A stretch of DNA of 59,390 bases, the filler included, from Bonamia ostreae (Eukaryota): NCBI GenBank assembly GCA_040357525.1. It is 6 parts of 6 records of this genome, joined end to end, with 100 filler letters (N's around TTAATTAATTAA, not from the genome) between each part and the next. Parts side by side here need not be neighbours in the genome. Positions count along the whole stretch, not along the records: positions 20,249 to 30,066 come from JBDODL010000036.1; 5 more parts are not named here. One strand, 5' to 3'. Positions 20,332-25,569 of this stretch are shown here, in pieces. The notes beneath the pieces were generated by a model that was given only the letters and a program-made list of their open reading frames with translations, was not told the origin of the DNA and searched no databases. Numbering within the stretch: position 1 is the stretch's first letter; each line of letters starts with the position of its first letter. A program made the translations under genes and the position numbers.

Positions 20332-23089
20332 ATGGCAGATCCAAATTCTTCGAGCCAGAACACAAGCACCCAAAACCAAGCAGCCAGCCAATTGGACCCG
20401 ACGCAACAGCCGGCCAACTCGGAAATCGTCATCACCGGCAAAAAGCGGAAGAGGAGGCAAGCCGTCTCCCGAGTAGTAGACCAGGTCGCCGAGCAGGTCA
20501 AAAGGGAGTTCTTCCAGTTCCTGGACTCTTTCTCCTCAGGAGAATCAGAGGAGACCGCGTTCTTCGTGGAACGAGCCGCGGCAATGGCGCAAAACATGAC
20601 CACTACTTTCGAAGTCTCCATAGAAGATCTGATGATGTACAACCAAGAACTGGCGGTGGCGTTGATCGAGGAGTACTCGCGCTTTGAACCGGTGGTCGTG
20701 GAGGCAGTCCGCGACTTTGTGCGGAAACACTTCCCGGCGCACCTTCGGATGGACGACTCCGAAAAAGAGAAGACGCTGTTCGTCTCCTTCACCGGAATCG
20801 CCAGCGTGCGCAGGTTATTTCAAACTAAACTTGCAGAATAAGGGGACTCGCCACGAAGCAACTCGGACAACTGATTTCGATCACGGGGACCGTGACGAGG
20901 ACGTCGGAAGTGTGCCCGGAGCTCCTCCTCGGCGGCTTCACGTGCAAGCAGTGCGCGGCCATTCTCTCCAACGTCGAGCAGCAATACGTGTACACGGAAG
21001 TTGCTTTTCTCACGATTAGCCGACGACGTGCTCCAACTCGAACTGCGACAACAGGACGAGCTGGGCGCTGGAAATGACCGAGTCCTTCTTCACCGACTGG
21101 CAGCGCGTGCGCCTGCAGGAAAACGCAGACGAAATCCCGCCCGGCTCCGTGCCGCGCCACATCGACGCCATCCTCCGCAACGAGCAGGTCGAGAAGGTGA
21201 AGCCTGGCGACAAATGCGTTTTCACGGGCGCCCTCGTCGTGGTCCCGGACATCGGGCAGATCCGCGGAGGCGTGGAGGCGTCTCGCGCGGGGAACAGGAA
21301 GCCCGACCCCAACTACCAGGGCGTGCTGGGGCTGAAGCAACTCGGGGTGCGCGCCCTCTCCTACAAACTCGCCTTCGTCGCCAACAACGTCGAGCCCTCT
21401 ACAACAAAACTCGGCGCGCCGCGCGGCGAACAGAGCGGGGGCGGTTCCGCGCGCGAGTCCGTCTTGGAAGGACTCAGCGCGGAGGAGAAACACGAGCTCC
21501 TGGCAATGTCAGAGACTCCCAACATATACGAGCGCCTGGCCGCGAGCATCGCGCCTGACGTATTCGGTTTCCTTCTTAACGCTCTGCAATGAAGGCCACG
21601 ACGAAGTGAAGAAGGGCGTTCTTCTGATGCTGCTGGGAGGAGTGAACAAGACCACCTTCGACGGGATAAAGCTGCGCGGAGACGTGAACGTGTGCATCGT
21701 GGGCGACCCGAGCACGGCGAAGAGTCAGTTCCTCAAGTTCGTGTGCTCCTTCTTGCCTCGCTCCATCTACACTTCGGGGAAGGCCTCCAGCGCCGCAGGG
21801 CTGACCGCGTCCGTGGCCAAAGACCCGGAAACCGGGGAGTTCGGGATCGAGGCGGGCGCTTTGATGCTCGCGGACAACGTTTCTAGCTTAACGTTCCAGG
21901 GCACCTGCTGCATCGACGAGTTCGACAAGATGGACCCACGCGACCAAGCCGCGATCCACGAAGCGATGGAGCAACAGACCATCTCGATAACGAAGGCTGG
22001 CATCAGCGTTTGCTACTAATTCCCAGGCCACCCTCAACGCGCGCGCCTCCATCCTCGCCGCGGCGAACCCCGTTTTCGGGCGCTACGACCTCTCGCGCCC
22101 GCTGAAGGTTCTTGAGATAATTCTGCAGGATAACATCGACATCAGCGCCGCGATAATGTCGCGCTTCGACCTCTTCTTCGTGGTGACCGACACGTGCGAC
22201 GACGACTCGGACTACGGGATGGCGCGCCACATCCTCGCGCGGCACCGGGGCGCCCCCGCCGCCCTCTCGGCGCCCTACGGCCCGGCCGCGCTCGCGAACT
22301 ACATCCGCTACGCGCGCTCGATCCGCCCCGCCTTCCCCTCCGCGGCCATGAAGCTCGTCGTGCAGAGCTACTGCGCGCTGCGCCAGTCGGACAGCGGCGG
22401 CGCGAAGGCGGCCTACAGGATAACGGTGCGCCAGCTGGAGTCGCTCATCAGGCTCTCGGAGGCCTTGGCCCGGGCCGAGCTGAAGGACAAGGTTGCTAAC
22501 GCTATCGAAGGTGCTGGAGAAGCATGTCCGCGAGGCGGCGAGGCTGCTGCGCAAGTCGATCATCCCGGTGCGTTCCGAAGACGTGGAGCTGGGCGAGGGC
22601 GCCGGCGCCATCTCCACGAGCGGTTTTGTTTTCACGCAAAGTGGCAAGGCGCTCGCTGTCCTTCGAGCAGTTCGCGAAGATCTCGAATCTGCTGGTCCAC
22701 CACATCCGGCGAGAGGAGAAACTGGCCACAGGTTGGATTACCCAAATCAAGAGTGGAGAGGGATCTCCGAGCAGGAGCTGGTGGAGTGGTACCTGGAGCA
22801 CAAAACGGACTCGGGCGATCTGGGCGGGGAGGACGCGGTCTCGGAGGCGCTGGAGACCGCCAGGTTGTCTACTTAACGCTGCAGAGCCGTTGTCGACAGG
22901 CTGATCAAAGTGGAAAACTTGTTGATAGTGTTGGAAGAACCGAACTTGGTGAACGAGGACAACCGCGGGGAAAGAGTGATCGACGTGCACCCGAACTACG
23001 ACCCCGACACGAATGAAAGTTTTGGGTTGAAGCAGTCCCAAAACGAAGCGAAGGAAGACGAAGCAGTGGATGGAACAGTCGAAGAATAA
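20332..23089 (+). CDS. MCM6: DNA replication licensing factor MCM6, 11 exons
   Basis: [89 protein letters not shown]; removing ten 19-28 nt introns gives one open frame to TAA at 23089. Confidence 0.97.
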
Positions 23090-24499
23090 ATGTTTGGAGT
23101 TTAAAATGTTTTTCGTTTTGAGGATGGAGATAATCCATCGTTTGTGTTTGCTTTTCAGATTATTCGCTTATGTTTATTGAAGCAAATTTAATTATTATTA
23201 CATGAACAAGGACAAGAAAGAATTAACGATACACAACATTCATGGTAAAACACGGTAACGAAAAAATAAATATATCTATTTTTTATCAAAAAAAATTGAA
23301 AGACATATATTATTAATATATATTAAAAACACGGAATAAATATATATTATTAATTTATTTCTTGTTCATCTATATCAAAAAATTGAAAGACGTATATATT
23401 TTAATAAGAATTTCTTGTTTAGAAAAATACTTAAAAATATTTTTAAAGAAGAAAAAACTTAAATTTGGAATTATATGTAAGTATTGAACAGAAATCTTTT
23501 GTCAAAGTATTCGATTTTTTTATAATAGAAAAGCACAGAACGAAGAGAGTTAAATACCAGAAGATTAAATTCCTACCAGTGAAAACTAGAAATTCAGAAT
23601 AGTCAAAAATGACTATAAAGAAAAGTAAAATAAGCTTAAATCTATGTATGAGTCAAAAAAAGACAGAATTTACTAATTCAAAATCAAATTAAAAATTAAA
23701 ATTAATCCTTGGATTTACCCATCGTCTAATTGTCATGGAATTAAAAGCGTAAATTAATTCGAATCTCCATGAATAAGAATATAACTAATTTTAAATGTGT
23801 TACTAACAAAATTTATCAAGCTAGATTAAACATGCATGATACAAAAATGTTAATCTGGATGTTGCTTATAAGTTAATGGAATAGAATTAAACAAGCATTT
23901 TTTTTATAAAAATGTTACTATAATTTGAAAACCAACAATAAAAAGATAACAATAGACATTGATAATTTGAATACTCCTCTTAATGAAGATCTTTAAACGC
24001 CGATAATAAGAAAAACGAAAAAAATCAAAAATAACTTTAATAAGTATAATAAAGTCTGAAATAATCTTTAAAAATTGTAAAAAATAAAGAAACACTACAA
24101 CAATCTTACATAGATAAAGGATAACAAATAAAAGCACCTGGAGTACAAATAAAAGACTGCACTGATATTTCCAACTGGGATATCTTTAAAAATGTTGGCG
24201 CTTGGCTACACCAATCGTTTAGTCTAGATTCAAATGTCGGCATTTAAACAACTAGGTTCGAAATTATAGACAAGTCCGAAATGTCTCAAAATGTTCCAGT
24301 TTCCCTTACATTAGAGCCTTTGATTTGCCATATCAGGTGCAAACCGAAGTGGCGGAAGGCGTTAGCGAGTCTTATGGACGGTGGGAAGTTTCATTGCACT
24401 TCGATATCGAGTTCGAAGTATATCCGAGATCGCCTCCCGACACCGACGCTCATCGGAGAGGCGGAGATCTTATTTGGTCTCCATGTAAAAATGATACTT

Positions 24500-25569
24500 T
24501 TACTTTGCTGTAAAGTCCTTCTCGGTGACCCTCTTCAAATAAACTGCCGAAGAGGGATTGTTTTTAGCATTCTTCCCCTGGCTGTAATCATAGCTCATCG
24601 CGTAGGCCATCAAACTCCCGTTTTCGTTAAAAGCGATGTCGGTGATCGCTTCCGGAACTTTGGCGAAAAACTTGACTCTTTGTTTCGCAGCTTTGTCCCA
24701 CAACGCGATGTTTCCGTCCGAACCCCCCGACACAAACATTTTGGCTTTCGGGTGAAACTCGATCGCGTTCACTGAGGTAGCCAGTTCGCCCTGGTTGTTC
24801 TGCGTCTTTTCTCTGTGCGCCTTAAAATTGAACGAGGCACTTAATTTAACGGAAAACTTGTCGTTTTGGAAGTACTTTACGGAGATGCGTCCTTCTATCG
24901 ACCCCACGCAAACTCCGTCTAGTTCGCTGAAGACGCTCACGCAGCTCGTTTGGAGCCGCAAGGGCGATGCAAATGTTTTGACCGGATTGCTAGGATTCCG
25001 CGTGTCGAAAACCAGCAACCCCTTTTCCGCGGTGCCGACCGCGAGAACGAACGATTTGGAGTCCATTGCATAAACTCTCTCGTTGACATTGCACTTCATG
25101 GCTTCTCCTTCTTTCCTTCGAGTCAGAGAGCAAACCTCGTGTCCCAGTAGCGGACTGTGCCGTCCCAGCTTCCGCTTGCGGCCATATTCGCTTGCTGCTT
25201 CAGCGCGCAGAGTTTGCGAACCGGTTCTTCGTGCTAAACGTGAAGGCAAAACTTTTCCCAGTTCTTTGTGTTGATTCGATGACGGGTCCCATATCAAAAC
25301 GCTTTTGTCTCCGGAAGCCATTGCAGCAAAATTGCCCTACAATTCTCGATTTAAACGATCCAGTCTATGTCCAGAAGAGGCGCGTTGAACTTTTTGCTGG
25401 TTTTGCACTGCACTGAGGTGCCGGAGTCTGACCAGACACAGACTTGGCCGTCCCAAGTGGTCGCCGCGATCATGTTTTGCGCGCTGATGCAAACGCTGCT
25501 AATGTTTGCGGGGGATTGCGGGACGGGCGTGTCTGTGTTGTCAGTGGCTTTGTTGCCATAATTGTACAT
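24500..25569 (-). CDS. RAE1: mRNA export factor RAE1/Gle2 (WD40)
   Basis: SPLRLQTSCV, VGSIEGR, FNFKAHR, SVNAIEFHP, GSDG..WDK, YAMSYDYSQG; introns at 25337-25356, 25234-25252, 25116-25135 and 24840-24857. Confidence 0.9.

Follow-up and report, generated by a model that had tools for sequence, protein, structure and literature searches.

Introns in a 59,390-base (59-kb) stretch of DNA from the oyster parasite Bonamia ostreae, hereafter the window, are extremely short and predominantly begin with GTT. All counts given below describe this one window, not the whole genome. The 26 well-supported introns come from MCM6 (10), RAE1 (4), RecQ (3), TRM61 (2) and other genes with RNA support (7). They range from 18 to 28 nucleotides (nt), with a median of 20.5 nt and up to ten in a single gene, and all 26 start with GT and finish with AG. 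The third intron base (+3) is T in 22 of them (about 85%), A in the remaining 4, and never G or C. Our analysis thus confirms that the predominance of GTT is real and exceeds what base composition provides, as the original prediction, which saw GTA donors as a minority, had proposed. Across the window, we estimate that about 70-85% of introns begin with GTT and 15-25% with GTA.

On the basis of its coding content, the window is nuclear DNA of B. ostreae (Haplosporida, Rhizaria), because the exon translations of two of its genes are 100% identical to named proteins of this species. The 278-amino-acid (aa) exon translation of RAE1 matches the 349-aa 'RNA export factor gle2 [Bonamia ostreae]' (P0001; NCBI and UniRef), and the 182-aa exon translation of MCM6 matches 'MCM DNA helicase complex subunit mcm6 [Bonamia ostreae]'. 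These matches rule out a dicyemid source, which the tiny introns and an RNA run carrying the label mollusc metagenome had suggested.

Donor consensus and background composition

Conservation at the donor extends into the exon but not past +3. On the exon side, A occurs at -3 in 14 of the 26 introns and at -2 in 20, and G at -1 in 13 (n = 24: p = 5e-3, 1e-5 and 2e-3, respectively), giving the donor consensus AAG/GTT, where the slash marks the splice site. At +4 the bases are T 13, A 6, G 4 and C 3, G is found at +5 in 6 introns and T at +6 in 12, and no position from +4 to +8 deviates from the interior composition (n = 24). The claimed lack of a consensus at +4 to +6 is therefore borne out in the set of 26, where even G at +5 is confined to those six introns. 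The usual GTRAGT donor, complementary to the 5' end of U1, does not describe these sites, as only four have a purine at +3 and six a G at +5. U12-type introns carry an extended RTATCC donor and a TCCTTAAC-like branch site; with no consensus from +4 to +6, the 26 introns do not have donors of this type. The four GTA introns are 20, 21, 24 and 27 nt long and the GTT introns 18-28 nt, the former being too few for a comparison of lengths.

A simple explanation for these donors would be composition, with T-rich sequence in the 5' half of the intron making GTT the commonest GTN triplet and +3 having no role of its own. In its favor, T fills 8-13 of the 26 introns at each position from +4 to +11, and GTT accounts for 0.43 of GTN triplets in the window and 0.45 (0.446) in its AT-rich parts. 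The share of GTT is 0.42 among decoy GT sites followed by an AG 18-28 nt downstream, and T makes up 0.37 of intron interiors. The count at +3 (22 of 26), however, stands well above that of the neighboring positions, and the binomial probability of at least 22 T is 8e-7 against the intron interiors, 1.4e-5 against the GTN triplets of the window and still 3e-5 against those of the AT-rich parts. Likewise, neither G nor C occurs at +3, whereas the two account for 0.33-0.41 of GTN triplets. The T frequency at +3 does not, then, merely equal its background, the outcome against which the proposal had been set (p = 8e-7 to 3e-5), and we regard composition as a distinctly improbable explanation.

The genes in question differ in composition. 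MCM6 has a GC content of 0.53 and 0.44 in 2-kb bins (20001-23000) and about 0.6 in its long open reading frames (ORFs), and the RNA-supported genes a few kb away (26001-34000) have about 0.27-0.33. In a sample that is small for both groups, GTT donors occur in 14 of 14 introns of MCM6 and RAE1, which are GC-rich, and in 5 of 7 introns of two AT-rich genes at 26.7-30 kb.

Introns removed from RNA

Contigs from several sequencing runs were compared with the window over an N-free region of 9.8 kb. Run X1 is DNA, runs X4 and X8 are RNA and run X9 is of unknown kind. X4 behaves as RNA, and was assigned as such from this behavior, because it has no intergenic depth, has a run of T at 24486, and lacks short stretches that X1 keeps. 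Among the deletions listed for X4, all eight are GT-AG stretches of 18-27 nt, six beginning with GTT and two with GTA. Each of the eight allows exactly one GT-AG placement, giving an identical product, and contigs of the DNA run X1 cross the sites ungapped. The RNA-supported introns outside MCM6 and RAE1 are:

26963..26984, plus strand: intron of 22 nt, GTT donor, supported by X4, in an unnamed AT-rich gene
27401..27427, plus strand: intron of 27 nt, GTA donor, supported by X4
27732..27751, plus strand: intron of 20 nt, GTT donor, supported by X4
28047..28071, plus strand: intron of 25 nt, GTT donor, omitted in both X4 and X8
29447..29466, plus strand: intron of 20 nt, GTT donor, supported by X4
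29619..29637, plus strand: intron of 19 nt, GTT donor, supported by X4
30026..30049, plus strand: intron of 24 nt, GTA donor, supported by X4

These deletions bear directly on the possibility that the pattern is an artefact, in which intron ends are placed wrongly or the stretches are something other than introns. They argue against it through their single placements, and so do the homology scores of MCM6, RAE1 and RecQ, which drop when any intron is retained, the continuity of Pfam positions over the TRM61 junctions, and a gene-finder null that yields 0-2 introns (all described below). On the other side, a GTC located 3 nt downstream could also serve as the donor of the tenth MCM6 intron, and introns that are stop-free multiples of three are not demanded by the reading frame. 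An artefact is, on balance, largely refuted, and we give it very little weight. Of the 26 supported introns, 16 are placed by homology or frame only.

Introns of MCM6

MCM6 contains the largest number of introns. Its exons match the Pfam domains MCM_N, MCM_OB, MCM and MCM_lid, and the spliced product scores 1041 bits, with 60% identity, against its best relative (788 aa, P0023). Each intron was retained in turn and the summed blastp score against 30 homologues was recorded; the score is 7563 with all ten removed and between 584 and 7537 with any one retained. The gene and its introns are as follows:

20332..23089, plus strand: MCM6 coding region, 851 codons in an open frame once ten introns are removed
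20814..20836, plus strand: intron 1, 23 nt, GTT donor; retention gives 26 stops
21000..21019, plus strand: intron 2, 20 nt, GTT donor; retention gives 23 stops
21567..21594, plus strand: intron 3, 28 nt, GTT donor; retention lowers the score from 7563 to 2964
21879..21899, plus strand: intron 4, 21 nt, GTT donor, in frame and stop-free; retention lowers the score from 7563 to 7496
22008..22026, plus strand: intron 5, 19 nt, GTT donor; retention lowers the score from 7563 to 5234
22108..22128, plus strand: intron 6, 21 nt, GTT donor, in frame and stop-free; retention lowers the score from 7563 to 7499
22492..22510, plus strand: intron 7, 19 nt, GTT donor; retention lowers the score from 7563 to 6952
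22623..22641, plus strand: intron 8, 19 nt, GTT donor; retention lowers the score from 7563 to 7231
22732..22751, plus strand: intron 9, 20 nt, GTT donor; retention lowers the score from 7563 to 7287
22864..22884, plus strand: intron 10, 21 nt, GTT donor, donor ambiguous

The smallest losses belong to the three 21-nt introns (4, 6 and 10). Reading through introns 4 and 6 meets no stop, and intron 10 keeps the frame with one stop inside it. The donor of intron 10 is ambiguous because the alternative at 22867 (GTC) scores 7543, compared with 7563 for GTT. Contigs support introns 1 and 2, and introns 3-10 rest on frame and homology. At intron 1, an X4 contig stops at 20813 and resumes with 8 bases found after 20836, so that the intron is skipped; at intron 2, an X9 contig over 20849-21085 lacks 20 bases. 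The public MCM6 protein (P0022, 531 aa) maps to 20332-22016 and uses introns 1-4 only, intron 4 thus being removed in the public model too. That model reads through intron 5 to a stop at 22016, leaving 531 residues compared with 851.

Introns of RAE1

All four introns of RAE1, like all ten of MCM6, start with GTT. The open frames and homology scores uphold what had been predicted for both genes, with contig support for three of these introns. The coordinates are:

24500..25569, minus strand: RAE1/Gle2 coding region, with the 278-aa exon identity to B. ostreae gle2
24840..24857, minus strand: intron of 18 nt, GTT donor, in frame and stop-free; missing from an X4 RNA contig (depth 10174) but kept in DNA run X1
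25116..25135, minus strand: intron of 20 nt, GTT donor, placed by homology and frame
25234..25252, minus strand: intron of 19 nt, GTT donor, placed by homology and frame
25337..25356, minus strand: intron of 20 nt, GTT donor; removal restores the frame, and it is the sole intron of the public model

Removing 25116-25135 and 25234-25252 together, which shifts and then restores the frame, raises the summed bits of the top ten blastp matches from 1462 to 1804 (20 homologues). On the same measure, the four-intron model scores 1804 compared with 1441 for the public one-intron model. Three introns are retained in the public model. Two of them cause about 33 codons to be read out of frame; the third, 24840-24857, is translated as coding in the public protein.

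At the 3' end of the gene, runs of T adjoin 24486 in contigs of the two RNA runs X4 and X8, just past the RAE1 stop. The mRNA seems to be polyadenylated at this position, about 14 nt beyond the TAA stop (24486-24502, minus strand). The 3' untranslated region is thus very short despite a long intergenic spacer.

Three of the introns in these two genes (21879-21899, 22108-22128 and 24840-24857) are stop-free multiples of three, and retaining them adds 6-7 residues. They are invisible to the reading frame and cannot be detected by ORF-based checks.

RecQ, TRM61 and predicted introns

GTA donors occur alongside GTT in RecQ and TRM61. In RecQ, tblastn with homologues reveals frame switches at 19102 and 19241, and removing three introns restores a frame of 731 codons, with the same three donors in all 6 stop-free combinations. 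The prediction of five RecQ introns, three of them GTT, is therefore upheld for three introns (2 GTT, 1 GTA), and the number five was not confirmed. A public B. ostreae RecQ protein was not among the 120 matches listed. In TRM61, both introns are fixed because Pfam profile positions continue across the two junctions, in agreement with the GTT donor proposed for intron 1. At intron 1, TrmI-like_N runs to position 48 of 50, ending at 45683, and is continued by GCD14 positions 2-58, read in the frame of the ORF 45687-45917; at intron 2, GCD14 2-58 is followed by GCD14 61-178 in a different frame. The introns of these two genes are:

19026..19046, plus strand: RecQ intron of 21 nt, GTA donor; retention gives 2 stops
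19078..19102, plus strand: RecQ intron of 25 nt, GTT donor; retention lowers the summed bits from 3412 to 2202
19219..19240, plus strand: RecQ intron of 22 nt, GTT donor; retention lowers the summed bits from 3412 to 2476
45679..45702, plus strand: TRM61 intron 1, 24 nt, GTT donor, placed by Pfam continuity
45917..45936, plus strand: TRM61 intron 2, 20 nt, GTA donor, placed by Pfam continuity

The window was also searched with a gene finder whose score is built from codons, interior composition and an intron penalty, with no term for +3. It predicts 55 introns, with T at +3 in 38, A in 13, C in 4 and G in none, compared with no intron in the reversed window and two in five local shuffles. The 34 predictions outside the curated 26, a less reliable set, have T in 22, A in 9 and C in 3. 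For the introns proposed in CNOT2, the SAM protein, the PPIE-like gene and eIF4E, the support consists of predicted GTT donors at 42074-42096 and 51770-51797. Some of the predicted boundaries are misplaced (27717, compared with the RNA-supported 27732) and in-frame introns are missed. A version that scored the length of open frames alone picked wrong frames in GC-rich genes and was dropped.

An adenosine at an apparently fixed distance from the donor

U2-type introns have a branch-point adenosine in a yTnAy context upstream of the AG. In the window, a further conserved position lies at +13 from the donor, where A occurs in 20 of the 26 introns (p = 2e-6); three of the six exceptions carry A at +12. 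The commonest pentamer at +10 to +14 is TTAAC. This base looks like the branch adenosine, which would then lie at a constant distance of 12 nt from the donor. Introns of 24-28 nt all have A at +13, and their extra length is placed 3' of it; measured from the 3' end, the A is less regular, the best position being -8 (17 of 26). The occurrence of A at +13 regardless of intron length gives partial support to a length-based definition of these introns.

Possible modes of donor recognition

Our tentatively favored explanation, for which we claim somewhat less than an even case, is ordinary GT-AG spliceosomal splicing at a minimal distance between donor and branch, with the donor read through the exon-side AG, the GU and the U at +3. 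The introns are taken as spliceosomal because they are GT-AG, are removed at the RNA level, and have an exon-side AG and a branch-like A. Splicing would proceed by the usual two spliceosomal steps, the distance from donor to branch having shrunk to its minimum. Only about six T-rich bases would then separate GTT from the branch motif, so that pairing of +4 to +6 with small nuclear RNAs (snRNAs) may be dispensable or sterically excluded.

Donor identity would, in this scheme, have three parts. The first would be the exon-side AG, which fits the AG//GUNNN class of donors, read mainly by loop 1 of U5; a review distinguishes this class from a second, //GURAG, read by the ACAGA box of U6 (PMC11732430). 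The second would be GU itself. The third would be U+3, which may form a G-U wobble with a G that is invariant in the ACAGA box of U6; according to the same review, +3 faces G44 of that box and pairs only weakly if it is A or G (PMC11732430). Such a scheme needs no altered snRNA. What the data show directly is the introns, their absence from RNA, the consensus and its excess over the background; the steric constraint and the RNA or protein that reads +3 are inferred.

Several results weigh against this explanation or narrow its basis. Pairing with U6 predicts an enrichment of U at +4, opposite the central A of the box, and the observed 13 of 26 (13 of 24 in the chi-square comparison, p = 0.18) does not differ significantly from the background. 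With GTT being the commonest GTN triplet of the window in any case (0.43), composition accounts for part of the excess. The candidate branch motif TNA[CT] is no more frequent than in shuffled interiors, 584 of 2000 shuffles reaching the observed 18 of 26, and the excess of A at +13 is not seen among the 34 less reliable introns known from prediction only (16 of 34, p = 0.2). An X9 contig (25141-25291, depth 2.3) crosses the RAE1 intron 25234-25252 ungapped; it could be DNA, unspliced RNA or a case of intron retention. Finally, the sample is a single 59-kb window in which two GC-rich genes contribute 14 of the 26 introns.

A rather unlikely alternative, one form of the compensatory snRNA changes originally proposed for these donors, is a compensatory change in U1, by which its 5' end would be altered opposite +3 to pair with GUU, early recognition still depending on U1. 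The U1 base opposite +3 is normally a pseudouridine, which pairs with A or G. A single new pairing partner would account for a preference as strong and nearly binary as that at +3 (T 22, A 4, no G or C), and the exon-side A-A-G is compatible with continued pairing to the U1 5' end. An A opposite +3 would, however, pair poorly with the GTA minority (4 of 26, and 13 of the 55 predicted introns), and few known RNA segments are as strongly conserved as the U1 5' end, which weighs against such a change. No snRNA gene was detected in the window by Rfam, at gathering scores or at E values up to 5.

The absence of a consensus at +4 to +6, together with the A fixed at +13, could also be expected if U1 were not used at all, as in the U1-independent, length-based definition that was the other cause originally proposed. 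The U1 small nuclear ribonucleoprotein would be lost or dispensable, and the tri-snRNP would select the donor at a set spacing from the branch site. There may be a precedent in the same class: mikrocytids have 16-17-nt introns, and only the U2, U4 and U6 snRNAs and 17-19 spliceosomal proteins were found in them (PMC10245619). The enrichment of splicing-gene losses, however, has been placed at the common ancestor of paramyxids and mikrocytids, and the introns of B. ostreae were described as 'canonical' (PMC11069148). The conserved exon-side AG is also compatible with U1 pairing. Recognition independent of U1 appears unlikely.

A broader proposal, which we consider possible though doubtful, is that Bonamia, and perhaps all haplosporidians, abandoned donor pairing past +3. 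The donor and the branch A would then act as one unit with a 12-nt spacing, and U+3 would be a selected partner, either of the U6 G through a wobble or of a changed U1.

Implications for splicing and for gene models

To our knowledge, +3 is a purine in eukaryotic donor consensus sequences. If pairing past +3 has indeed been abandoned, Bonamia would be the first known case of a lineage whose consensus has a pyrimidine at this position. A lineage with U+3 in roughly three-quarters or more of its introns would offer a natural experiment on what reads +3, be it U1, U6 or a protein, and would also bear on the lower limit of the distance between donor and branch. The original prediction saw in these donors a candidate for an undescribed mechanism. 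The shift in the donor is real; ultra-short introns, however, are already known in the class, and U+3 requires no change in snRNA in principle.

Our analysis also has practical consequences for the annotation of a regulated oyster pathogen. The public models of MCM6 and RAE1 are wrong because tiny introns were missed. The omission may also affect the published intron and coding sequence (CDS) statistics for B. ostreae and any comparison of gene content that relies on them. Gene prediction in this group has to admit introns shorter than 20 nt and to model both GTT and GTA donors.

Other features of the window

A Pfam scan of stop-to-stop ORFs over the whole window identifies housekeeping genes of eukaryotes, encoded on either strand. 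Among them are NPL4, CNOT2, a diphthamide-synthesis gene, an M76 peptidase, RecQ, MCM6 and the WD40 protein RAE1/Gle2, as well as TRAPP, an RRM protein, Pcf11, TRM61, a cold-shock-domain protein and eIF4E. Exons are GC-richer and intergenic DNA is very AT-rich. A tRNA scan of the window found nothing relevant. The window contains 660 N as short masked runs, among them paired runs of 44 N about every 10 kb (10026-10125, 20149-20248, 30067-30166, 39966-40065 and 49701-49800), which resemble masking rather than assembly gaps.

Two regions differ between runs or from their surroundings. In the spacer between MCM6 and RAE1 (23414-23713), DNA contigs reach a depth of 100-250, compared with about 10-13 in the flanks, and carry variant bases and a back-joint, resembling a repeated element. 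At 25936-26400, an RNA contig of depth 85 matches with 10 differences and 23 bases missing, while the DNA run has the window's own letters; the mismatch may reflect a diverged allele, a strain or a paralogue.

Comparison with known systems

Ultra-short spliceosomal introns are known in Ascetosporea; those of B. ostreae add a pyrimidine consensus at +3 and an apparently fixed distance from donor to branch. The B. ostreae genome paper reports 'canonical introns', with 2 per mRNA, and CDSs that average 658 bp (PMC11069148 Table 1), and its available text gives neither intron lengths nor a donor logo. The transcriptome paper does not mention introns (PMC9329632). More generally, the papers searched on Bonamia, haplosporidians and mikrocytids describe, in their available text, neither a GTT donor in Bonamia or other haplosporidians nor Bonamia intron lengths, and supplements or figures may hold logos.

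The closest known system is that of the mikrocytids Mikrocytos mackini and Paramikrocytos canceri, with 224 introns genome-wide, 16-17 nt long and of conserved sequence (PMC10245619). Like Bonamia, they are ascetosporean parasites of invertebrates whose ultra-short spliceosomal introns fall in a narrow size range, and a 2026 paper describes a drastic reduction in intron number and size across Ascetosporea (PMC13746701). The introns of Bonamia are not of the mikrocytid type, as they range over 18-28 nt and have variable interiors in which only AAG/GTT, A+13 and AG are conserved (compare PMC10245619).

Introns of a similar size are found outside the class. The tiny introns of ciliates and of the Bigelowiella nucleomorph have donors that start with GTA. 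In length they measure 15-16 nt in Stentor, 20-35 nt in Paramecium and 18-21 nt in the nucleomorph (PMC10245619, PMC2222250). Myxobolid myxozoans and Dicyema japonicum have median lengths of 22-27 nt, a reduced donor and no polypyrimidine tract (PMC13644364). Their donor is reduced to 'GTa', whereas that of Bonamia is GTT with a minority of A, and the longer their introns, the farther the conserved A residues lie from the 3' AG, a pattern similar to that of the A at +13 in Bonamia (PMC13644364).

With respect to the donor itself, the AG//GUNNN class shares with Bonamia a strong exon AG and degenerate positions from +3 to +6 (PMC11732430). In animals and plants, however, //GURAG sites occur beside this class and +3 remains a purine, whereas nearly all Bonamia donors belong to it and have U at +3. 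A lineage-wide change at one donor position has a parallel in Saccharomycotina, where a switch from +4A to +4U accompanied the loss of METTL16 and SNRNP27K (PMC11732430). That switch, tied to the reading of the donor by U6, lies at +4, whereas the shift in Bonamia lies at +3.

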